A DNA stretch of 64,000 nucleotides from Pseudomonadota bacterium (GTDB taxonomy: Bacteria > Pseudomonadota > Alphaproteobacteria > Rhodobacterales > Rhodobacteraceae), in assembly GCA_038534155.1 (NCBI GenBank), contig JBCAXH010000006.1, positions 50,829-114,828 of the forward strand, read 5' to 3'. The notes under the pieces are model-generated. The model saw nothing but the letters and a program-made list of their open reading frames with translations, was not told the origin of the DNA and made no database searches. The position numbers and the translations under genes are program-made. Shown piece by piece: positions 12,598 through 51,188 of the stretch. Each line of letters begins with the position of its first letter. The stretch's first letter is position 1.

Positions 12598-12816
12598 GGG
12601 CGGGAGGCTAGCCAGCGAGCGCCGTCATGAAAACCCGCTTGCGCCAGGAACCCGCCGGTCGCGACGTTTGTTCCCGGTCGGAAACAGCCCGCGCCTAACG
12701 GAAATGCGAAGCGGCGTTTTTGGGACAGGCCGCGTCGATTCCGGACCTCGCCGCGCGCCGCGCCCGCGTTACGCCGCGTTGAATACCGTCGCATGCGATC
12801 TGGGGAGGAGCCGAAC

Positions 12817-14493
12817 GTGGCGCATAAAACAGACATCGAAATCGCCCGCGAAGCGAACAAGAAGCCGATCCAGGAGATCGGCGACAGGCTCGGCATTCCG
12901 ACCGAGCACCTGCTGCCCTACGGCCACGACAAGGCGAAAGTCTCCGCCGAGTTCATCAAGGCGCAGAAATCGAAGGACGACGGGAACCTGATCCTGGTGA
13001 CCGCGATCAACCCGACCCCTGCGGGCGAGGGGAAGACGACGACGACGGTCGGTCTCGGCGACGGTTTGAACCGCATCGGCAAGAACGCGATGGTCTGCAT
13101 CCGCGAAGCCTCCCTCGGCCCGAACTTCGGGATGAAGGGCGGCGCGGCGGGCGGCGGCTACGCCCAGGTCGTCCCGATGGAGGAGATGAACCTCCACTTC
13201 ACCGGCGACTTCCACGCGATCACCTCGGCGCACTCGCTGCTCTCCGCGATGATCGACAACCACATCTACTGGGGCAACGCGGCTGAGATCGACACCCGCC
13301 GCGTCGTCTGGCGCCGGGTCGTCGACATGAACGACCGCGCGCTCCGTCAGATCACCGCCTCGCTCGGCGGCGTCTCCAACGGCTTCCCGCGGGAGACCGG
13401 CTTCGACATCACCGTGGCCTCCGAGGTTATGGCGATCCTCTGCCTCGCGGACGATCTGGCCGATCTTGAAAAGCGCCTCGGAGACATCATCGTCGCCTAC
13501 CGCCGCGACCGCTCGCCGGTCTATTGCCGCGACATCAAGGCCGAAGGCGCGATGGCCGTTCTCCTGAAGGACGCGATGCAGCCGAACCTCGTGCAGACGC
13601 TGGAGAACAACCCCGCCTTCGTCCATGGCGGCCCGTTCGCCAACATCGCCCACGGCTGCAACTCCGTCGTCGCCACCAAAACGGCGCTGAAGCTCGCCGA
13701 CTACGTGGTGACGGAGGCCGGCTTCGGCGCCGACCTCGGCGCGGAGAAGTTCCTCAACATCAAATGCCGCAAGGCGGGCATCGCGCCCAAAGCGGTCGTC
13801 ATCGTCGCCACCGTGCGCGCGATGAAGATGAACGGCGGGGTGGCGAAAGCCGATCTCGGGAACGAGAACGTGGACGCCGTCAAATCCGGCTGCGCCAACC
13901 TCGGCCGCCACATCGAGAACATCGCCAAGTTCGGCGTCCCCGCCGTCGTCGCGATCAACCACTTCGTCACCGACACCGACGCCGAAGTGCAGGCGGTGAA
14001 GGACTACGTCGCCTCCATGGGCGCCGAAGCCGTGCTCTGCCAGCACTGGGCGAAGGGCGGCGAGGGCACCGAAGAACTCGCGAACAAGGTCGTCGAGATC
14101 ATCGACAGCGGGAAGGCCGCCTACAAGCCGCTCTACCCGGACGAGATGGGCCTCGCCGCCAAGATCGAGACGATCGCGAAAGAGATCTACCGCGCCGAAG
14201 ACGTCGCGATGGACAAGAAGGTGCTCGACCAGCTCAAGCAGTGGGAAGACGCGGGCTACGGCGATCTGCCGGTCTGCATGGCGAAGACGCAGTACTCTTT
14301 CTCCACCGACCCGAACGAGCGGGGCGCGCCCACCGGCCATTCGATCCCGGTGCGCGAAGTGCGTCTCTCCGCCGGCGCCGGCTTCATCGTCGCGATCTGC
14401 GGAGAGATCATGACCATGCCGGGCCTGCCCCGCACCCCGGCGGCGGAGAGCATCCGCCTCAACGAAGAAGGCGAGATCGAAGGCTTGTTCTGA
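12817..14493 (+). CDS. fhs: Formate--tetrahydrofolate ligase
   Basis: GTG start after GGAGGAG; [60 protein letters not shown]. Confidence 0.97.
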
Positions 14494-14574
14494 CGATCAC
14501 GTTTCGCGGCGCCGCGCTTCCCTCACCGCGCGGCGCCGCTTAGCGTGCTCTCGTTTTCAACAGGGAGCCTATCC

Positions 14575-15051
14575 ATGCGTCTTCTCGCGATCCTCGCCGC
14601 CGTCCTGATCTCCGTCTCCGCCGCCCGCGCGAGCGACGATCATATCGGCTATTATCACCCCGAGATCACCTCGGAGGAGACGTTCGCCCGCGTCATCGCC
14701 GCTGCGCCTCCCGCCAACGCCGCGATCCGCTCCGGCTTCGTCACCTCGATCACCAAGGCGCAGCTCGCCGCCCCCGAAAGCCCGCGTTTCGTGCTGACTG
14801 AGAAGGGCGACGCTTCCGACAAGCTGATCATCGTGGCGCTCGACGACGACGTCTTCTCCACGCTCTACCGCGCCCGCGCCGTCTTGAGCCAGCTCAGCTC
14901 CAACTTCCGCGGCACCGACTTTTTCATCCAGCAGGACCTGCAGGTCGAAGGCACCTTTTTCGACATGCTCCAGATCATGCAGTTCAAGTCCCTCGTCATC
15001 ACCGACGGGGAGACCTGGGCGCACCGCGTCAACTTCGCGCCGGAGGGGTAG
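14575..15051 (+). CDS. Secreted hypothetical protein
   Basis: RBS GGGAG then ATG 14575; cleavable signal peptide, HIGYYHPE, C-terminal SDG-like ITDGETWAHRV; strong GC3 bias. Confidence 0.7.
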   Translation: MRLLAILAAVLISVSAARASDDHIGYYHPEITSEETFARVIAAAPPANAAIRSGFVTSITKAQLAAPESPRFVLTEKGDASDKLIIVALDDDVFSTLYRARAVLSQLSSNFRGTDFFIQQDLQVEGTFFDMLQIMQFKSLVITDGETWAHRVNFAPEG

Positions 15052-15059
15052 AGCGCGAG

Positions 15060-15521
15060 ATGACGCATGAGGCCTGGGTCGACTGGACGCTGGATGCGGG
15101 CGCCGATATGCCCGCGGGGCGCTACTCGCGCGTCCACCGCATCCGCTTCGACGGCGGCGCTGAGGTGGCGGGCGCGCCGTCCCCGTCCATCGTGCCGCCG
15201 CCCTGGTCCGACCCCGCCGCAGTGGACCCGGAGGAGGCCTTCGTCGCGTCCGTCTCCGCCTGCCACATGCTCTGGTTCCTCGACCTCGCCCGCTGCGGCG
15301 GGCTGACCGTCGCCGCTTATCGCGATCACGCGGTTGGCGAGATGGCGAAAAACGAGGCGGGAGAGCTGTGGGTCGCCCGTATCGCCCTTCGCCCCGAGAT
15401 CGGCTGGCCCGAAGGCGCCGCGCCGGCGCCGGGCGAGGTCGCGGCGCTGCATGACCGCGCCCACGCCAAGTGCTTCATCGCCAATTCGGTGAAAACCGAG
15501 ATCACCATCGCCCCCGCCTGA
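15060..15521 (+). CDS. OsmC/Ohr family protein
   Basis: [20 protein letters not shown] and [12 protein letters not shown] with the two conserved Cys. Confidence 0.9.
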
Positions 15522-15546
15522 CCGCGACCGCCTGAAAGGACATCCG

Positions 15547-16449
15547 ATGACCGCCCACCTGATCGACGGCAAAGCCTTCGCCGCCACCGTCCGCGAGAAA
15601 GTCGCCGCCGAGGTGGCCAAGCTCAAAGCGGATCACGGGATCACCCCCGGCCTTGCGGTCGTCCTCGTCGGCGAAGACCCGGCGAGCCAGGTCTACGTGC
15701 GCAACAAGGGCAAGCAGACCGTCGAGGTCGGCATGAACTCCTATGAGCACCGGCTCGACGCGACGACGGGCCAAGCGGAGCTAATGACCCTGATCGACGC
15801 GCTGAACCACGACCCCTCCGTCCACGGCATCCTCGTGCAGCTCCCGCTCCCCGGCCATCTGGACGAGGACGCGGTGATCAACGCCATCTCCCCGGCGAAG
15901 GACGCGGACGGCTTCCATATCTCCAATGTCGGACTCCTCGGCACCGGGCAGAAGTCCATGGTCCCCTGCACCCCGCTCGGCTGCCTGATGATGCTGCGCG
16001 ACCATCACGGGAGCCTCTCGGGCCTGAACGCCGTCGTCGTCGGGCGCTCCAACATCGTCGGCAAGCCGATGGCGAACCTCCTGCTGAAGGACAGCTGCAC
16101 CGTCACCATCGCCCACAGCCGCACCAAGGATATCGAAGCGGTTTGCCGTCAGGCCGACATCGTCGTCGCCGCCGTCGGGCGCCCCGAAATGGTGACCGGC
16201 GACTGGATCAAGCCGGGCGCCACGGTCATCGACGTCGGCATCAACCGCGTCCCCGCGCCCGAGAAGGGGGAGGGCAAGATGAAGCTCGTCGGCGACGTCG
16301 ACTTCGCCTCCGCCGCCGAGGTCGCCGGCGCGATCACGCCGGTCCCCGGCGGCGTCGGCCCGATGACCATCGCCTGCCTCCTCGCCAACACCCTCACCGC
16401 CTGTTGCCGGGCGAATGGATTGGCGGAGCCGGAGGGACTGACCGTCTGA
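15547..16449 (+). CDS. folD: Bifunctional methylenetetrahydrofolate dehydrogenase/cyclohydrolase
   Basis: [62 protein letters not shown]. Confidence 0.97.
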
Positions 16450-16480: not shown

Positions 16481-18136
16481 ATGTCCGTGCAGATCCTGAC
16501 CGCTGAAGCCTCCGCCCCCGTCCGCGCCTGCGCGGAGGGGCTGAGCTTCTGGGGCGGTGTCGATCCGGCGAGCGGAGAGATCATCGACACCCATCACCCG
16601 GATTGCGGCGCCAGCGTCGCGGGCCGCATCCTCCTCATGCCCACCTCGCGCGGCTCCTGCTCAGGCAGCGGCGTCCTTCTGGAACTGGCGCTGAACGGGC
16701 GCGCCCCCGCCGCCCTGATCTTCCGCGAAGCCGAAAGCGTCCTCACCCTCGGCGCCCTGATCGCGGCGGAGATGTTCGCTCGCCCGATCCCCGTCGCCCG
16801 CCTGTCGCCCGCCGACTTCGCCGCCCTCGCCTCCGCGCCCGAAGCGAGTATCGCGAAGGGCCGGATCGAAGCGCCCGGCCTCTCCATTCCGCTCGCTGCG
16901 CCCGAAGACGCGCTGCATCTCACCCCCGCCGACCGGGCCCTGCTCGCGGGCGACGACGGCGAGGCCGCCCAACTCGCCATGCGGGTCATTGCGGGCATGG
17001 CGCGGGCGGAGGGCGCGGCGCGTCTCACCGACGTCACCCGCGCCCATGTGGACGGCTGTATCCTCGCCAACGACGCCAACCTGATCTTCGCCGAAACCAT
17101 GCGGGAGCGCGGCGCGAAGCCCCGCGTCCCCACCACGATCAACGCGATCTCGGTGGACCGGGAGCGCTGGCGCGCGCAGGGAACCCCGCCGGATTTCGGC
17201 CTGAAGGCGCAGCGCCTCGCGGACGCCTACGTGGCGATGGGCGCCCGCCCCACCTTCACCTGCGCCCCCTACCAAGAGGACCCGCCCGGTTTCGGCGAAC
17301 GCATCGGCTGGTCGGAGAGCAACGCGGTAGTCTACGCTAACAGCGTCCTAGGCGCCCGCACCGCGAAACTGCCCGACTATCTCGACCTCTTCGTCGCCAT
17401 GACCGGCCGCGCGCCGGAGACCGGCCCCTACCTGACCGAAAACCGCGCGCCCCAGATCTCTCTGGAAGTCGATGCGCCGAAGGCCGCCGACGACGGCTTC
17501 TGGGGCCTCCTCGGCTGGCTCGCGGGCAAGGCCGTCCCGGACCGCATTCCCCTGATCGAAGGCGTCGCCCATCTCGCCCCGAGCGAAGACGACCTCCGCG
17601 CCCTTTGCGCCGCCTTCGGCGCAACTTCCGCCGCGTCTATGCTCCACGTCGCGGGCGCAACGCCCGAAGCCGATATGCCTCCCGCCGCCGATGCGAAGCG
17701 CATGAAAATCACCCGCGCCGATATCGCTGCGGGATGGAGCCGCCTCAATCAGGGTCCCGAAGAGATCGACCTCGTCGCCCTCGGCAGCCCCCACCTCTCC
17801 TTCGCTGAACTCCGGGCCTTCGCAGACCACCTCGCCGCCCCCGTCCAAACTGCCGTCATCGTCACCCTAAGCCGCGCCACCCGCGAGCGGGCGGCGAGCG
17901 AGGGCCTGATTGACCACCTTACGGCGCGCGGCGTCCGCTTCGCCGCCGATATCTGCTGGTGCTCGATCACCGAACCCGTTTTCCCGCCCGATGCCCGAAC
18001 GCTCATCACCAATTCCGGCAAATACGCCCACTACGCCCCCGGCCTTTCGGGCCGCGCCGTCCGCTACGGAAGCCTCGCCGCCTGCGCCGAAGCCGCCATG
18101 ACCGGCCTGGCGCCTAGCCCGCCCGCCTGGCTCTGA
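16481..18136 (+). CDS. Fused aconitase X (DUF126+DUF521), cis-3-hydroxy-L-proline dehydratase family
   Basis: LSFWGGVDP.SGEIID.HHP, GSCSGS, PTFTCAPY, WSESNAVVYANSVLGART, LGSPHLS, DICWC, ITNSGKYAHYAPG. Confidence 0.88.
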   Translation: MSVQILTAEASAPVRACAEGLSFWGGVDPASGEIIDTHHPDCGASVAGRILLMPTSRGSCSGSGVLLELALNGRAPAALIFREAESVLTLGALIAAEMFARPIPVARLSPADFAALASAPEASIAKGRIEAPGLSIPLAAPEDALHLTPADRALLAGDDGEAAQLAMRVIAGMARAEGAARLTDVTRAHVDGCILANDANLIFAETMRERGAKPRVPTTINAISVDRERWRAQGTPPDFGLKAQRLADAYVAMGARPTFTCAPYQEDPPGFGERIGWSESNAVVYANSVLGARTAKLPDYLDLFVAMTGRAPETGPYLTENRAPQISLEVDAPKAADDGFWGLLGWLAGKAVPDRIPLIEGVAHLAPSEDDLRALCAAFGATSAASMLHVAGATPEADMPPAADAKRMKITRADIAAGWSRLNQGPEEIDLVALGSPHLSFAELRAFADHLAAPVQTAVIVTLSRATRERAASEGLIDHLTARGVRFAADICWCSITEPVFPPDARTLITNSGKYAHYAPGLSGRAVRYGSLAACAEAAMTGLAPSPPAWL

Positions 18137-18142
18137 CCACCA

Positions 18143-18165
18143 CCTTCACGCTTCCCCAAATACTC
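18143..18165 (+). repeat. Dispersed intergenic repeat, copy 1
   Basis: CCTTCACGCTTCCCCAAATACTC; 19/23 identical to the reverse complement of 41355-41377. Confidence 0.65.
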
Positions 18166-18272
18166 AAAAAGCCGCGCAGCGGCTCCGTTTTTCGGCATAG
18201 CCGGAAAACGCCGGGCCCAACCAAGGCGATCGAAGATCGCCGCGGGCGGGAGACCTTGCTTTCCGCCGGGCG

Positions 18273-18623
18273 CTATCCTTTGGGCGCGATCCCCTTGTTC
18301 GCCGTCACCGCGAACGGGTTCTGGTAAAGCTGATCGTGGCTCTCGACGCCCACGTCGATCACGCAGTCCTCCGTGGGGCGCGCCACGCATAGAAGAATAT
18401 ACCCCGCCTGAGACTGCCGCTTGTTCAACGCCGTCCCCTTCGGCTGGCGCACCTTGCCGGAGATCATCTTCGCCGCGCAGGTGATGCAGCCGCCATAAGC
18501 GCAGGCGATGGGCAATTGCTCTCCCGCCGCCAGCGCCGCGTCGTAGATCGGCTCGTCCTCGGCGACGGAAAGGGCGACCCCCCGATTGCGGAGGGTCACC
18601 TGATGTCGCTTCGCGTCGTTCAC
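18273..18623 (-). CDS. Plant-type 2Fe-2S ferredoxin
   Basis: C-X4-C-X2-C (ACAYGGCITC) plus distal LLCVA; GTG start. Confidence 0.9.
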   Translation of the reverse strand: MNDAKRHQVTLRNRGVALSVAEDEPIYDAALAAGEQLPIACAYGGCITCAAKMISGKVRQPKGTALNKRQSQAGYILLCVARPTEDCVIDVGVESHDQLYQNPFAVTANKGIAPKG

Positions 18624-18748
18624 CGCCGGGCGAACCAGCGCGCGACGAGAGAGGCCCAGAATCCGCCTCCGGTTCGGGGCCGCCCCTCCCGCGCCTTGGC
18701 GACCTCAGCGGCCATCCGCGCGAGGTCGCCGCCATTGCAGCAGCTCAC
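18620..18748 (-). CDS. Putative 42-aa microprotein with N-terminal Cys-Cys (absent from the ORF track)
   Basis: Manual translation (M)SCCNGGDLARMAAEVAKAREGRPRTGGGFWASLVARWFARR*; GTG 3 nt after the SBP56 stop; TGA overlaps the ferredoxin GTG (GTGA). Confidence 0.55.
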   Translation of the reverse strand: MSCCNGGDLARMAAEVAKAREGRPRTGGGFWASLVARWFARR

Positions 18749-18751
18749 GCC

Positions 18752-20104
18752 TCACATCCAGATGTCGGATGTGACGTCGCCGCCCGGATAGCGCATCTCG
18801 TGGCAGCGGGAGGGCCCGTTCGGCTCGTTCCCGAAATCCACCACGAAGTCCGGATTGATCGACATGCCGCCGTTCTCCGTGTCGCAGTCGATCATGAACA
18901 TCTGCGCCCCCTTGTCCTTCATGTCCGGATAGAACTGGTTGTCCCAGGACGAGAAGAGCGAGGTCGTGGCGTAGAGCCGTTTGCCGTCCAGCGAGAGCTG
19001 GATCATCTGCGGCGCGCCCTGCACGGTCACCCCGTTCACCACCGGCGCCTTGCCGAGAAGCCCGCCGATCCAGACCTGCCCGGTCAGTTTCGGGTTCGCG
19101 GGGTCGGAGATGTCGTACTGCCTCAGATCGCCATGGAGCCAGTTGGCGAAATAAAGGAAGCGGTCGTCCATCGAGATCAGGATGTCTGTGATCAGCGACG
19201 GCATCGGCACGGGGAAGCTCTCGACCTCGATCGCCGGGATGTCGATCACCTTCTCGATCTCGAAATCCCCGTCATCCGTCTTCCACCAGCGGAAGACGTT
19301 GGACGACAGCGTCGCCGCGAACATGCCTTCGTTCGATTCCGGATCGTGCATGCCGCGGACTTCGAGCGGGATCATCCCCTCCGCGCCCATGTCGATCGAC
19401 TTGACGATTTTCTTGCCTTCGAAGTCCCAGAAATGGATCGACTGGCCGTATTTGCCCTTGCCGACGTCCTCGAGATCGAAGCCCGGCATGAACGTGTTCG
19501 GCGCGCCCCATTCGGAGGAGACCATCATGTTGTGCCGCGGCTGGTACCAGAAGTCGTAATTGTAGTTCATGCCGGTGATGTCGTTCTCCCACCTGCCGAC
19601 GATCTCGAACTCCTCGTTCACATGCAGGAACCCGCCCGGCGCATTTCCGTCGGCGTCGCCGAGCATGGAGATGATGATGTCCGGCCCGAGGCAATGCACC
19701 GTGTGCGGGGCGGAGAGATTGGTCTTCGCCTTGATCTCGTCGCCCGAGATCACCTTGTGAAGCTTGGGATTTTTCGCGTCCGACGTGTCGATGATGTTGA
19801 GGTTCGACGTCCGGACCCCCGGCATGATCAGATACTTCCGCTCCTTCGTCGCGTCCTGATGGCAGGAGGAGCAGGCGTTCCAGCCGGAATGGTGCAGCTC
19901 ATCCCCGATCTGGGGCATCTCGGTGCGCGCGACGACGCTGGAATAGGTCGGGCTTTCGGGGTCCACGTCGACCGTGGCGAGATAGTCGGGCGCCTCAACG
20001 CCGGTGCCGACGTATAGCGCGACGGTGTAGAGCAGTTTCTCCCGCTCCGCCTTCATCGCGTCAGCCGGCGAGGCGTAGCCGGGGCCGCAGCAATCCAGTG
20101 ACAT
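18752..20104 (-). CDS. SBP56/SELENBP1 family protein (methanethiol oxidase homolog), no signal peptide
   Basis: CCGPGY, PDYLATVDVDP, DELHHSGWNACSSC, YDFWYQPRHN, ITDILISMDDRFLYFANWLHGD, PQMIQLSLDGKRLY, HEMRYPGGDVTSDIW; RBS GGAGG. Confidence 0.93.
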   Translation of the reverse strand: MSLDCCGPGYASPADAMKAEREKLLYTVALYVGTGVEAPDYLATVDVDPESPTYSSVVARTEMPQIGDELHHSGWNACSSCHQDATKERKYLIMPGVRTSNLNIIDTSDAKNPKLHKVISGDEIKAKTNLSAPHTVHCLGPDIIISMLGDADGNAPGGFLHVNEEFEIVGRWENDITGMNYNYDFWYQPRHNMMVSSEWGAPNTFMPGFDLEDVGKGKYGQSIHFWDFEGKKIVKSIDMGAEGMIPLEVRGMHDPESNEGMFAATLSSNVFRWWKTDDGDFEIEKVIDIPAIEVESFPVPMPSLITDILISMDDRFLYFANWLHGDLRQYDISDPANPKLTGQVWIGGLLGKAPVVNGVTVQGAPQMIQLSLDGKRLYATTSLFSSWDNQFYPDMKDKGAQMFMIDCDTENGGMSINPDFVVDFGNEPNGPSRCHEMRYPGGDVTSDIWM

Positions 20105-20123
20105 GATTTTTCCTCCCTAGTTT

Positions 20124-20134
20124 TTGTCTGACAA
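20124..20134. promoter_or_regulatory. Palindromic operator candidate upstream of the SBP56 gene (GntR/FadR-like)
   Basis: TTGTC-T-GACAA, 20 nt upstream of the start codon. Confidence 0.45.
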
Positions 20135-20267
20135 TTAGCGGTCGCCGGGCGCCGCTTTGTCCAGCAAAATTCTGTTGAATATCTTGAGTTGTTTTCACTC
20201 AAAGAGCGAAGAGCGTAAGCCAGCCTCGTTTAAGGCGGCCTGACAGCCATCAGCGCAAATATTGACC

Positions 20268-20283
20268 CTTACGTTAACGTCAA
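20268..20283. promoter_or_regulatory. LiuR-like (MerR family) operator upstream of etfBA
   Basis: CTT-ACGTTAACGT-CAA with a perfect 10-bp core, immediately downstream of a TTGACC -35-like hexamer (20262-20267). Confidence 0.6.
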
Positions 20284-20430
20284 TATAGATAGGGCCAATC
20301 TGAGGCGCGGCGATTCGCACGGGCGGAAAGTCGCTTTCAGACGATGACGGATGACATCTCCCCGCGTAGAACGACGCGGATGCGAGTCGCCCCTATCCCG
20401 GGGCGGGAGAGGAAACGGAGTGAACGCGAA

Positions 20431-21192
20431 ATGAAGGTCCTGGTGCCTGTCAAACGCGTGATCGATTATAACGTGAAGGTTCGCGTGAAAGCGGACGGCA
20501 CGGGCGTCGATCTCGCCAATGTTAAAATGTCGATGAACCCCTTTGACGAAATCGCCGTGGAAGAGGCGATCCGTCTTAAGGAAGCGGGCAAGGCCGACGA
20601 AATCGTCGCCGTCTCCATCGGCGTGAAGCAGAGCCAGGAGACGCTCCGCACCGCCCTCGCTATGGGCGCGGACCGCGCGATCCTCGTCGTCGCCTCCGAA
20701 GACGTGAACACCGACATCGAGCCGCTGTCTGTCGCCAAGATCCTCGCCAAGATCGTTGAGGAGGAGGCCCCCGGCCTCGTGCTTTGCGGCAAGCAGGCGA
20801 TCGACAACGACATGAACGCGACGGGCCAGATGCTCTCTGCGCTCCTTGGCTGGTCGCAGGGCACCTACGCCTCCGAGGTCGACATCGACGGCGACAGCGC
20901 CAAGGTGACGCGCGAAGTCGACGGCGGCCTTCAGGTCGTCGACGTGAAGATGCCGGCGATCATCTCGGTCGACCTGCGTCTGAACGAGCCGCGCTACGCA
21001 TCGCTGCCGAACATCATGAAGGCGAAGAAGAAGCCGCTGGATGAGAAGACGCCCGCCGATTACGGCGTCGACGTCTCGCCGCGCCTGACCGTCGTCTCCA
21101 CCACCGAGCCGCCTGCGCGCGCCGCCGGCGTCAAGGTCGCCGACATCAACGAGCTGGTTGCGAAACTCAAAGACGAAGCGGGGGTTATCTGA
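20431..21192 (+). CDS. etfB: Electron transfer flavoprotein beta subunit
   Basis: Start moved to ATG 20431: [56 protein letters not shown]. Confidence 0.97.
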
Positions 21193-22142: not shown

Positions 22143-22175
22143 GGGCGGCCGTTACTAACGGCCGCCCTTTTCTTT
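22143..22175 (+). terminator. Intrinsic terminator after etfA
   Basis: GGGCGGCCGTT-ACT-AACGGCCGCCC-TTTTCTTT. Confidence 0.85.
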
Positions 22176-24042
22176 ACGCGAGAAGAGACAGGATCGGCGT
22201 CGTCGCGGCGGTTGCGCCGAACGAGCCGCTGTCTCGGGTCGTGCCCAAGGCGAAAAGAGTGCGTATCTGGTCAAGCCGTTCAGGCTCCAGAAACTCGGCG
22301 ACTTCATCGGTGCCGAATGTGCGCACCGCCCGATCCTTGAAAATCTCAACCTGCTTGTCGACGTCGATCGCAGCTGAGGCGTCCGGCACCCCGAGTGCGC
22401 GGGCGACGACCGTCCGCAACGGGCCCGTTCCAAGGATCTGGAACCATCGCGCGTCATTGGAGCGAACCTGGCGGACCACGTTCTCCAGACCGGTCTGAAG
22501 GCTCAGCCCCAGCCGGAGGTCGACATTCTGCTCTCCAACGCTGATTTCGAAGGCGTTGGCGATGTAATCATCGATGATCGCCTCGGCGAAGCCCGGGGGA
22601 AACCGGTTCTCCGGCGGGGTGAATGAGAAGTTCAACGCGCTTTGAAGGGTCGCGTATCTGGTGTCGGAGATGGATCCGATGACCGATAGCGGGTCGTCAG
22701 GTTGCGCCGAAAGAACCCTTTGCGCGAACTCTAGGCCGATGACATCGCGGGGCAGGTCGAGCAAGCGGAGCGTGTTGATCGTCAGGTTCGCGTTGTCGAA
22801 GAACTCCTCCGCCGTGCTGGGTGAATTCAGGAGCGCTCCGGCGCTCTGTGCGAAAGCGGCGATCGGCGACGTGGTCGGGGCGCCGGCCTGCCCGGTGACG
22901 GGATCGAAATCGAAGGCCTTGGCGAAGGCGATCTGCCGGGCATCGCCGCTGACATTCGCCGGTGAGGCGGCGTCCGCCGTGTCGGAGAGGAGGATGTCGC
23001 GCAAGGCGCTGTCGGCGACCACGTCTTCGGTGAGACCGAAAACGGCTCGGGAGAGGCTCACCAGCTCTTCATCCGCGAGAAAGCCGTCGACGGTTTCAAA
23101 TGACGCGGGCCGCGCATCGAAGATTTCCGCGAGCCGATAGACGCTTTCCCTCTCGCCTTTGCGATTAGCGAAGTCGAAGGCCCGCGCGATTTCGAGCAGT
23201 GCGGGATCGCCGAGCGTATTCGCGAGCGAAGCGGGATCGGAGAGGTCGCTGTCGAGTACCTGGCCGACCAGAAGCGGGTTGGACGCGAACTGCTCCGCCC
23301 CGAAGGCGCGCAGCACCCGCTGGAGAAGAAGGGGGTCCTCCAGAAGATCCGACGACGTTTCAACGCTTTGGAGCCGATCAGCGACAAATTCCGAAACCCG
23401 CTCCAGAACCGCCTCGGGAGCGCCGACGCGGTTCGGCTGGAGCGCTGATGCGAATTCGACATAACGCGGATCGTCCAGCCGGTTCACCAGCGCGTTCGGG
23501 TCGGAGACGTCGGATTCCAGAACGCGTTTCAGGAAGTCGGGCTGGGAGGCGTCGCGCTGAAGGTCGAACACTTCGAGCGCGCGTTCGAGAAGAGGTTCGT
23601 TGCGCCGTGTGAAGAGCGAATCCACGTCGGGTAATCCGCGCAAGAGCGGCGCGATCGCGTCTTTCGGAGATGATTGCGGAAGCTGCGCGCCGCCATCGCC
23701 GCCGAAATTGAACGCCTGCGCGAACTCGGTATAGCGACGATCGGCGAGGCGGTTGGCGAAGGAGCTTCGGTCCGCGATGTCGGATTCGAGGATCCGTTTC
23801 AGGAAGGCGCCCTTGTCGATATCGTCCTGCAGACCGAAAGCGGTGAGCGCGACGCGAAGCAACTGCCGGTCGCCGAGCAGCTCATCCGCCGTCTCTACGC
23901 TCGTCAGGCGCGCGCGGACCGCCTCGATATCGCTGCGGGCGGAGGGATCGGCGCGCAGCCGCGCCTCCTGATCCGAGCGCGTCGTCTCCAGAAAATTCAG
24001 CGCCGAGAGGCCGGAGCCGGCGATCAGGGGCGTGAACACCAT
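22174..24042 (-). CDS. DUF1217 family protein with five internal repeats
   Basis: N-terminal GSGLSALNFLETTRSDQE; repeated LL.D..LL...L.AFGL......FL.R.L.SD..D..S.AN.L.D.RY..FA.AF.F units; C-terminal WF.ILG..PLR.V...ALG.P...A..D.DKQ. Confidence 0.75.
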   Translation of the reverse strand: MVFTPLIAGSGLSALNFLETTRSDQEARLRADPSARSDIEAVRARLTSVETADELLGDRQLLRVALTAFGLQDDIDKGAFLKRILESDIADRSSFANRLADRRYTEFAQAFNFGGDGGAQLPQSSPKDAIAPLLRGLPDVDSLFTRRNEPLLERALEVFDLQRDASQPDFLKRVLESDVSDPNALVNRLDDPRYVEFASALQPNRVGAPEAVLERVSEFVADRLQSVETSSDLLEDPLLLQRVLRAFGAEQFASNPLLVGQVLDSDLSDPASLANTLGDPALLEIARAFDFANRKGERESVYRLAEIFDARPASFETVDGFLADEELVSLSRAVFGLTEDVVADSALRDILLSDTADAASPANVSGDARQIAFAKAFDFDPVTGQAGAPTTSPIAAFAQSAGALLNSPSTAEEFFDNANLTINTLRLLDLPRDVIGLEFAQRVLSAQPDDPLSVIGSISDTRYATLQSALNFSFTPPENRFPPGFAEAIIDDYIANAFEISVGEQNVDLRLGLSLQTGLENVVRQVRSNDARWFQILGTGPLRTVVARALGVPDASAAIDVDKQVEIFKDRAVRTFGTDEVAEFLEPERLDQIRTLFALGTTRDSGSFGATAATTPILSLLA

Positions 24043-50492: not shown

Positions 50493-51188
50493 TCAGCCCG
50501 AATAGGTCTCGTCCAGCGAATAGCCCGCCGCGCGCACCGTGCGGATTGGGTCGCTGTCACCGCGCCTGTTGAGCGCCTTTCGAAGCCGTCCGACGTGCAC
50601 GTCCACCGTTCGCGCTTCGACATAGACGTCGCGGCCCCAGACCATGTCCAAGAGCTGCTCACGGCTGAAGACCCGGCCCGGACGGCGGAGGAGGCAGTCG
50701 AGGAGAGCGAATTCTTTCGGTCCGAGCCGCACTTCGCGCGCCCCGCGGCGCACGCGGCGGGTCTCCCGATCCAGAATGATGTCGCCGAAGGTCGCGGCGT
50801 CGCCCGCCACGCCAGGGCGCGCGCGGCGCAAGACGGCGCGGACGCGGGCGATCAGCTCCGACATGGAGAAGGGCTTCGTCAGGTAGTCGTCCGCCCCGGT
50901 GTCGAGGCCGCGGATGCGGTCGTCCTCTTCCCCGCGCGCCGTCACCATGATGATCGGCAGGTCGCGCAATTCGGCGCGGGAGCGGATGCGGCGGCAGATC
51001 TCGACGCCGGAGACGCCCGGAAGCATCCAGTCGAGCAGCATGAGGTCGGGCGCGTCTTCGTCCAGCGACACCATCGCTTCGTCGCCGTCCGCGCAGACGC
51101 GGACGTCGTATCCCTCCTGGGTCAGGTTGTATTCGAGAAGCGCGGCGAGCGCCTCTTCATCCTCGACGACTGTGATGCGCGCGACCAT
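50493..51188 (-). CDS. phoB: Phosphate regulon response regulator PhoB
   Basis: PDLMLLDWMLPGVSG.E.CRR, GADDYLTKPFS, WG....VE.RTVDVHVGRLRKAL; last gene of pst operon. Confidence 0.96.
   Translation of the reverse strand: MVARITVVEDEEALAALLEYNLTQEGYDVRVCADGDEAMVSLDEDAPDLMLLDWMLPGVSGVEICRRIRSRAELRDLPIIMVTARGEEDDRIRGLDTGADDYLTKPFSMSELIARVRAVLRRARPGVAGDAATFGDIILDRETRRVRRGAREVRLGPKEFALLDCLLRRPGRVFSREQLLDMVWGRDVYVEARTVDVHVGRLRKALNRRGDSDPIRTVRAAGYSLDETYSG

Follow-up and report, generated by a model that had tools for sequence, protein, structure and literature searches.

In a 64,000-nucleotide (nt) stretch of a Rhodobacteraceae genome (GenBank assembly GCA_038534155.1, contig JBCAXH010000006.1, forward-strand positions 50,829 to 114,828), referred to here at its full length as the window, three minus-strand genes form one translationally coupled operon. 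They encode an oxidase of the SBP56 family, a microprotein with a cysteine-rich N-terminus and a plant-type [2Fe-2S] ferredoxin. The ferredoxin is a dedicated syntenic partner of the SBP56 clade to which the oxidase belongs, the clade of human SELENBP1 and the bacterial methanethiol oxidase RdMTO. Both the enzyme family and this clade are already known, members of the clade have been characterised without partners, and our search of the full-text literature found no paper on a pairing of SBP56, selenium-binding protein or SELENBP1 with a ferredoxin. The genes of the operon are as follows, with positions counted from the first letter of the window.

SBP56 gene, 18752-20104, minus strand: 450 amino acids (aa); predicted SELENBP1/RdMTO-type cytoplasmic copper thiol (methanethiol) oxidase, from Pfam and the clade tree.
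Microprotein open reading frame (ORF), 18620-18748, minus strand: 42 aa, GTG start; identified from homologues at the same junction and a codon-position test.
Ferredoxin gene, 18273-18623, minus strand: 116 aa, GTG start; plant-type [2Fe-2S] ferredoxin, from Pfam Fer2 and a subfamily alignment (A1).

The SBP56 gene ends in a TGA stop codon at 18752-18754, which is followed by a 3-nt gap (GGC) and the GTG start of the microprotein ORF at 18748; the stop of this ORF overlaps the GTG start of the ferredoxin gene as GTGA at 18620-18623. An earlier reading of the window from its letters alone (the original prediction) had described three tightly coupled minus-strand ORFs, and the coordinates, the gap and the overlap all match the sequence. 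This arrangement is far from chance, since it recurs in more than 100 loci of other genomes.

Pairing of the ferredoxin with one SBP56 clade

The distribution of the ferredoxin was read against a tree of 122 SBP56 sequences, comprising relatives of the window protein, a class-wide sample and a scan of a genome collection. The tree resolves three well-separated clades. Clade A, which holds the window protein, consists of proteins of ~450 aa with the N-terminus x-CC-GPGYASP and the C-terminus RYPGGD(C/V)(T/S)SDIW. Clade B proteins are ~42% identical to the window protein, have 463-466 aa, end in GGDCSTDSFCYP and carry Cys456, and thereby correspond to RlMTO. Clade C proteins are ~27% identical, carry the motif TCQSPYM and have longer upstream frames, and represent the periplasmic MtoX type. 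A ferredoxin gene lies downstream of the oxidase gene in 82 of the 86 uncut clade A loci and in none of the clade B (0/21) or clade C (0/12) loci.

The association extends well beyond the Alphaproteobacteria. Among the 80 best loci of the genome collection, with SBP56 identities of 71-92%, 72 have a homologous ferredoxin gene just downstream on the same strand, and three of the remaining eight are truncated where the contig stops. The sources of these loci are Alpha-, Beta- and Gammaproteobacteria, Actinomycetota, Acidobacteriota, Chloroflexota and Entotheonella. The distance from the SBP56 stop to the ferredoxin start is mostly between -10 and +50 nt, and overlaps are frequent. A sample of 400 genera of the window's own family contained 50 genomes with a clade A gene, and all 29 of the loci fetched from these carry the ferredoxin.

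The pairing also holds when it is approached from the ferredoxin. A profile of the subfamily, built from 26 sequences (alignment A1) that include the window's, was run on 401 alphaproteobacterial genomes and gave matches of 152-186 bits solely in the five that contain a clade A SBP56 gene, one in each and always adjoining that gene; the window ferredoxin scores 182.7 bits, although it is itself one of the 26 profile sequences. The best non-adjacent match reaches 90 bits and all others 65 bits or less, and these are mostly ferredoxin domains of reductases. The original prediction had proposed that a lack of synteny between ferredoxin and SBP56 in other genomes would overturn it, and the synteny proved to hold from both sides. 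Apart from these two, no gene of the neighbourhood recurs in more than 12 of the 81 loci compared, which indicates that the SBP56-ferredoxin pair travels as a cassette across phyla, and the pairwise identities of the two proteins correlate with r = 0.77.

Such a pattern could in principle result from simple co-inheritance in a mobile cassette, with the ferredoxin serving some other enzyme elsewhere in the cell, and the four clade A loci that have no ferredoxin would fit this explanation. We consider it very improbable, however, as the ferredoxin subfamily was not found away from clade A SBP56 in the 401 genomes, the pair is kept across phyla while all other neighbours change, and the two genes often overlap. 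In one of the ferredoxin-less clade A loci, from a Chloroflexota metagenome-assembled genome (MAG; L069:6647-7756), SBP56 is followed by a gene resembling class-III alcohol/S-(hydroxymethyl)glutathione dehydrogenases, as judged from its N-terminal sequence only, a neighbour that fits formaldehyde as product.

The oxidase, its ferredoxin and their relatives

The window SBP56 protein is a full-length member of its family (Pfam PF05694, 691 bits against a cut-off of 34, residues 5-450), is encoded by the single SBP56 gene of its genome and has as its sole solved relative by sequence a Sulfolobus tokodaii protein (PDB 2ECE, 389 bits). It contains the motifs CCGPGY, ELHHSGWNACSSC, YDFWYQP and PGGDVTSDIW, with C5-C6 at the N-terminus and C78/C81 forming a CSSC motif. 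The open frame comprises 454 aa against the 450 aa of the protein, so that only four in-frame codons lie 5' of the ATG, and the domain begins at residue 5; with no room upstream, the protein has no signal peptide and is cytoplasmic. Its score against the NCBIfam MtoX equivalog NF052453 is 145.8 bits, far below the cut-off of 650. The cytoplasmic, SELENBP1-like enzyme of the original prediction is thus borne out, as is the phylogenetic check that it had suggested for separating the MtoX type from the SELENBP1-like type: the window protein belongs to the SELENBP1/RdMTO clade and is not a periplasmic MtoX.

Within this clade, RdMTO from Roseobacter denitrificans and SELENBP1 from humans have been characterised. 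They are termed 'cluster 1' methanethiol oxidases and act on methanethiol and other short alkyl thiols in a copper-dependent reaction that yields formaldehyde together with sulfur in reduced or sulfane form (PMC10936201, PMC13603461). RdMTO is placed in clade A by its published features, namely Cys8/9, Cys82, Cys143, Cys448 and a C-terminus identical to that of human SELENBP1. The window protein has in common with both enzymes the absence of a signal peptide, the N-terminal CC, the ELHHSGWNACSSC and HTVHC motifs, the C-terminal RYPGGDxxSDIW and the six proposed copper-site residues. The site proposed for RdMTO consists of His75/76, His139/142, Asp189 and Glu253 (PMC13603461); the window residues H71, H72, H134, H137, D184 and E248 are all present and are invariant in 89 clade A sequences. 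On these grounds copper-dependent oxidation of methanethiol or alkyl thiols can be carried over to the window protein, as a predicted function, with reasonable confidence.

One published cysteine is missing. Two of the cysteine motifs of Cao et al. are retained in the window protein as GWNACS and HTVHC, whereas the third, GGDCS(T), reads GGDVT, placing Val444 at the position of RdMTO Cys448 and SELENBP1 Cys466. Valine occupies this position in 45 of the 89 clade A sequences and cysteine in 44, in agreement with the finding of Schlemminger et al. (2026) that a cysteine at the RdMTO Cys448 position is helpful but not essential (PMC13603461). Clade A also possesses cysteines of its own that are absent from clade B, namely C5/C6, C81, C407 and C434, among which C81 and C407 are invariant within clade A.

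Two features of the published enzymes bear on the role of a partner. Recombinant RdMTO and SELENBP1 contained only 0.17 and 0.4 Cu per protein, respectively (PMC13603461), and the formation of H2O2 is disputed between two groups, Cao et al. having detected none and one laboratory having found it to be stoichiometric (PMC13603461, PMC10936201). The published work on RdMTO and SELENBP1 treats the enzyme as self-sufficient and mentions neither a ferredoxin nor a microprotein. Loci of the window's family with RdMTO-like residue numbering (L134 and L135) contain the ferredoxin gene. The statement in the original prediction that the characterised bacterial enzymes are periplasmic is outdated, since RdMTO, a clade A enzyme by its features, has been expressed and assayed and was active in vitro without ferredoxin (PMC10936201, PMC13603461).

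The periplasmic enzymes offer a parallel. In Hyphomicrobium sp. VS and Ruegeria pomeroyi, a signal-peptide-bearing MtoX is encoded in an operon with SCO1/SenC and MauG genes (PMC5739008), and so resembles the window system in that a copper-dependent methanethiol oxidase of the SBP56 family is encoded with dedicated accessory genes. MtoX differs from the window protein in its signal peptide, its ~27% identity, its TCQSPYM motif and a tyrosine at the H137 position, and its partners are a copper chaperone and the di-haem protein MauG where the window partner is a ferredoxin. As previously noted, there is no mauG or SCO1 gene in the window, which lies on contig C6 of our numbering; two SCO1/SenC genes (C4 and C20) and one CCP/MauG-family gene (C21) are found elsewhere in the genome. 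The earlier proposal that the ferredoxin takes the place of these genes went further than the evidence; their products are periplasmic maturation factors of another clade.

The ferredoxin itself matches Pfam Fer2 (PF00111) with 48.7 bits and has the cluster ligands C41-x4-C46-x2-C49-x29-C79 of a plant-type [2Fe-2S] protein. Its closest solved relatives are cyanobacterial and plant ferredoxins (e.g. PDB 3p63 and 1rfk, ~110 bits), which belong to the same fold family and have the same CX4CX2CX29C ligands. It nevertheless stands apart from these proteins, scoring 62.1 bits against the TIGR02008 (fdx_plant) cut-off of 81.15. The cluster loop of the subfamily is C-(R/A)-Y-G-G-C-I-(T/S)-C, which in the window ferredoxin reads CRYGGCITC as opposed to CRAG(A/S)CS(T/S)C in the cyanobacterial and plant proteins. 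In alignment A1, C41, C46, C49, C79, C87, L99, Y100, N102 and P103 are invariant and F104 nearly so. The unusual tail that had been remarked upon earlier is real and defines the subfamily, as the C-terminal V-G-V-E-S-H-x-x-L-Y-x-N-P-F is conserved throughout it and is reached by almost none of the PDB alignments. A 99-aa ferredoxin in another alphaproteobacterial genome (G127:C103:22817-23113) scores 90 bits against the profile, between the subfamily (>150) and ordinary Fer2 proteins (65 or less), and may represent the nearest outgroup; the Pfam search found no SBP56 in that genome.

The two proteins also differ in net charge. The net charge of the ferredoxin core is near neutral in the subfamily (-7 to +6), with a mean of +1.6 in the subclade of the window, as compared with about -11 for the canonical 3p63 (residues 2-90), while the SBP56 oxidases carry net charges of -23 to -33. 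In the Val444 subclade, the oxidases are the most acidic of all and the ferredoxin loop at residues 55-75 is basic (+4.2 versus -0.7), and this pattern is what electrostatic docking would predict.

The closest analogy for such a private ferredoxin is YfaE, a small [2Fe-2S] ferredoxin that is encoded in the operon of a single metalloenzyme, class Ia ribonucleotide reductase, and serves only that enzyme by maintaining its cofactor. The analogy does not extend to a specific sequence relationship, as the window ferredoxin scores 16.7 bits against the YfaE equivalog NF007985 (cut-off 75), and the target of YfaE is a di-iron rather than a copper enzyme.

The microprotein, variants of the module and its surroundings

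The small ORF between the two genes is part of a more restricted pattern. Homologous ORFs occupy the SBP56/ferredoxin junction in 20 loci of one 23-member subclade (tree support 95), whose members are from Anderseniella, Neomegalonema, Pikeienuella and Pseudaestuariivita, from a Rhodobacteraceae MAG and from the window. By genus code, the window genome falls into the same genus as a MAG labelled Pikeienuella sp. (Rhodobacterales). The small ORFs begin 3-6 nt after the SBP56 stop and end on the ferredoxin start, and the encoded peptides of 31-42 aa, with identities of 26-49%, begin with M-(C/S/G)-(C/G)-C and contain at least two cysteines in their first five or six residues (alignment A3). The window peptide begins M-S-C-C-N-G-G-D-L-A, and its CCG-G type of start resembles the CCGPG start of the oxidase. 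Alignment A3 further includes an invariant alanine, a mostly acidic position and a basic C-terminal segment rich in Trp, Phe and Leu. AlphaFold2, run on the alignment, predicts helices at residues 6-20 and 28-40, the second of them basic and Trp/Phe-rich, and a free N-terminal cysteine cluster, at modest confidence, with a predicted local distance difference test score (pLDDT) of 67. Searches of Pfam and NCBIfam found no family for the window microprotein or for four of its homologues.

Nucleotide substitutions in this ORF follow the pattern that marks a gene which is translated and under purifying selection. Among eight Anderseniella copies, the variable sites are distributed 9/4/21 over codon positions 1/2/3, comparable to the 8/4/18 of the first 99 nt of the ferredoxin gene, and 15 codons vary synonymously only while nine change the residue, against 1/22 and 2/21 in the other frames. 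The ORF might instead encode no functional protein and act as a spacer that couples ferredoxin synthesis to that of SBP56, or tunes it to the supply of Cys-tRNA through its cysteine codons. This alternative would account for the close fit of the ORF between its neighbours, its fast evolution, its dispensability in most of the family and the clustering of cysteine codons at the very start. We regard it as rather unlikely, given that the third-position bias and the synonymous excess appear in the microprotein frame only, that the M-C-C-C start, the invariant alanine, the acidic position and the basic amphipathic C-terminus are kept across four genera, and that loci with directly overlapping genes couple well without a small ORF.

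The Cys-Cys microprotein of the original prediction therefore stands as a conserved coding gene, in one subclade, but not as part of a conserved core, since most clade A loci have only 0-50 nt between the SBP56 and ferredoxin genes and leave no room for it. On the available sequence evidence the microprotein is best described as real, recent and accessory. Elsewhere in clade A loci no similar MCCC-type small ORF was found, the other matches being scattered or lying in alternative frames of known genes. We also considered that the microprotein might be fused to the ferredoxin N-terminus where the spacer is missing, and rejected this possibility because the longer N-termini at those loci carry no cysteine. 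In one Anderseniella genome the microprotein ORF is separated from the ferredoxin gene by an inserted 259-aa gene (L028:6524-7300), whose product has a weak likeness to SMI1/KNR4 (SUKH) proteins (23.8 bits, below the 25.4-bit cut-off).

A different third gene accompanies the pair in one Cys444 subclade. Here the operon includes a 149-aa CoA_binding_2 (coenzyme A-binding) gene, which either follows the ferredoxin gene or separates it from the SBP56 gene, and it is present in 24 of the 29 loci from the window's family. This module shares its oxidase clade, its ferredoxin subfamily and its tight coupling with the window operon, which has the microprotein instead of the CoA-binding gene. Our literature search turned up no publication on this three-gene module. 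No CoA_binding_2 match was found in the window or in the whole Val444 subclade, and the window genome contains only a 46%-identical paralog on contig C14. The gene is also absent from the RdMTO-like loci L134 and L135. The idea that loss of Cys444 tracks loss of the CoA-binding gene was discarded, as many Cys444 loci also lack it. A natural fusion in a library of representative proteins (P0006, 225 aa) joins a ferredoxin of the SBP56-linked type (161 bits to A1, tail included) to CoA_binding_2, and provides a Rosetta-stone hint that the two proteins may act together in the three-gene variant.

Several loci of other genomes have further neighbours. Two clade A SBP56 copies are present in some genomes (L071; G516, G803, G527 and G545), and in L071, an Aurantimonadaceae MAG, a second CoA-binding and a second ferredoxin gene lie beside the first SBP56-ferredoxin pair. 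In Anderseniella (L024-L034), genes for the tripartite ATP-independent periplasmic (TRAP) transporter components DctP, DctQ and DctM immediately precede SBP56 in the same orientation. A second group (L044; L040-L046) has an enoyl-CoA hydratase gene (ECH_1) immediately upstream instead; DmdD, the methanethiol-releasing enzyme of dimethylsulfoniopropionate (DMSP) catabolism, belongs to the enoyl-CoA hydratase family.

Within the window, the ferredoxin gene is convergent with a plus-strand gene at 16481-18136 that encodes a fused AcnX-type protein (821 bits against the NCBIfam cis-3-hydroxy-L-proline dehydratase equivalog, cut-off 700). One further feature lies between these two genes.

GC-rich hairpin with T-run, 18170-18184, plus strand: found by a consensus scan only.

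The scan signal is weak (one site seen against 2.0 expected in shuffles), and the hairpin is a possible terminator for both convergent transcription units. An Rfam search of 17900-20600 gave no match at E values up to 0.1. The single sigma-70-like promoter match ends 2 nt before the start codon and is not credible as the promoter of the operon. Beyond the AcnX-type gene, the plus-strand region 12793-16449 contains an fhs-like formate-tetrahydrofolate (THF) ligase (566 aa) and a folD-like methylene-THF dehydrogenase/cyclohydrolase (300 aa), both named by sequence only, and between them a 168-aa ORF with a signal-peptide-like start and no Pfam match and an OsmC-like protein (PF02566). The presence of one-carbon-THF genes 2-6 kb from a formaldehyde-releasing oxidase is suggestive, yet they are not conserved as neighbours in other loci. 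On the other side of the operon, a 622-aa ORF (22174-24042, minus strand) has no NCBIfam match and contains, by eye, several repeats of the form ...F(G/D)LQ.D...FL(K)RVLESD..D..S..N.L.D.R(Y)..FA.AF.F. The etfBA-hbd genes adjoining the operon were considered as its electron supply and rejected as a housekeeping cluster that is not conserved beside SBP56.

Proposed electron transfer to the copper site and alternative roles

Given that the pairing is strict in both directions, spans phyla and involves a one-electron carrier, the ferredoxin probably acts on SBP56. We favour, with moderate confidence, a coupled operon in which a copper thiol oxidase is served by a private ferredoxin that passes single electrons to the copper site and by a microprotein that handles thiophilic cargo. 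How the proteins interact, which way the electrons flow and what the microprotein carries are inferred in the following scheme. The ferredoxin would use its unusually basic or neutral surface and the conserved LYxNPF tail to dock on the strongly acidic oxidase, and would hand single electrons to the copper site. It might thereby re-reduce Cu(II) to Cu(I), starting or rescuing catalysis, or it might act in every turnover, such that O2 is fully reduced to water and no H2O2 is released in the cytoplasm. The microprotein, a lineage-restricted helical hairpin with a free cysteine cluster, would most probably handle a thiophilic cargo for the pair, whether Cu(I) destined for metallation or the sulfane sulfur that the oxidase produces.

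Electron donation is favoured over other roles on three grounds: clusters of the plant type tend to be strong reductants, an enzyme in the cytoplasm benefits if it sets free no H2O2, and donation would make sense both of the conflict over H2O2 and of the low activity and copper occupancy of the recombinant enzymes when they are studied alone. Both the low occupancy and the disagreement over H2O2 would be expected if the assays lacked a partner.

The ferredoxin could alternatively be the electron acceptor, in which case the enzyme would be a methanethiol dehydrogenase in vivo that passes two electrons to two ferredoxins instead of to O2, avoiding H2O2 and conserving reducing power. The co-occurrence evidence applies equally to this arrangement, the release of H2O2 is costly in the cytoplasm, and Cao et al. 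observed none from these enzymes. The potentials of plant-type [2Fe-2S] clusters, usually about -350 to -450 mV, would nevertheless make them poor acceptors for the oxidation of a thiol to an aldehyde, and the isolated enzymes use O2, with stoichiometric H2O2 in one laboratory. We therefore consider an acceptor role rather improbable.

A role confined to maturation seems to us quite unlikely. Under this explanation the ferredoxin might, for instance, reduce Cu(II) for insertion, or form or reduce a cysteine-based feature of the oxidase, be it the pair C78/C138 or C81, C407 and C434, which are specific to the clade. The microprotein would be a Cu(I) chaperone, and the whole would form a cytoplasmic analogue of SCO1/MauG, in line with the maturation module considered in the original prediction. 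The cysteines peculiar to clade A (the invariant C81 and C407 as well as C5/C6 and C434) are absent from the ferredoxin-less clade B, recombinant enzymes made in Escherichia coli are poorly metallated, the microprotein has a free cysteine cluster, and YfaE provides a precedent of this kind. Tight translational coupling, on the other hand, implies that the proteins are made in roughly stoichiometric amounts, as is more usual for working partners than for assembly factors; most loci have no microprotein, and the similarity to YfaE is negligible.

Several observations weigh against the electron-donating ferredoxin that we prefer. In vitro, both RdMTO and human SELENBP1 oxidise methanethiol with no ferredoxin present (PMC10936201, PMC13603461), and the partner is thus not strictly required for activity. 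Four uncut clade A loci lack a downstream ferredoxin, and among the 81 loci compared no gene for a ferredoxin reductase or any other source of electrons is a conserved neighbour (none in more than 12). We know of no eukaryotic SELENBP1 with such a ferredoxin partner. Among the best 150 profile matches from 1.84 billion representatives there is no SBP56-ferredoxin fusion, and none of these matches is longer than 432 aa. The charge covariation comes from two subclades only, which are not phylogenetically independent, and the absence of the microprotein from most of the family means that it is not essential to the core mechanism.

A bolder generalisation, which we put forward tentatively, is that bacterial SELENBP1-type enzymes, rather than being oxidases that work alone and release H2O2, may be ferredoxin-dependent copper enzymes that either reduce O2 to water or use the ferredoxin as acceptor. 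The ferredoxin would then be the first private [2Fe-2S] partner of a mononuclear copper oxygenase or oxidase, and the MCCC microprotein could found a new class of cysteine-cluster carriers of Cu(I) or persulfide.

The new elements reported here are the Val444 variant of the module without the CoA-binding gene, the conserved cysteine-rich microprotein and the charge covariation of oxidase and ferredoxin. The microprotein adds another unannotated but selected small gene within a known operon. Methanethiol occupies a central place in the marine turnover of DMSP and methionine and is also the substrate of human SELENBP1, a protein under study in cancer, the loss of which leads to extra-oral halitosis. 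How the clade's reaction proceeds is disputed, with H2S and H2O2 or sulfane sulfur and water as the reported products, and recombinant preparations have been poorly metallated; assays that include the cognate ferredoxin could decide the stoichiometry and show by what means copper is kept reduced in the cytoplasm. In marine sulfur-cycle genomics, the ferredoxin signature provides a clean marker for distinguishing clade A from the two other SBP56 clades.

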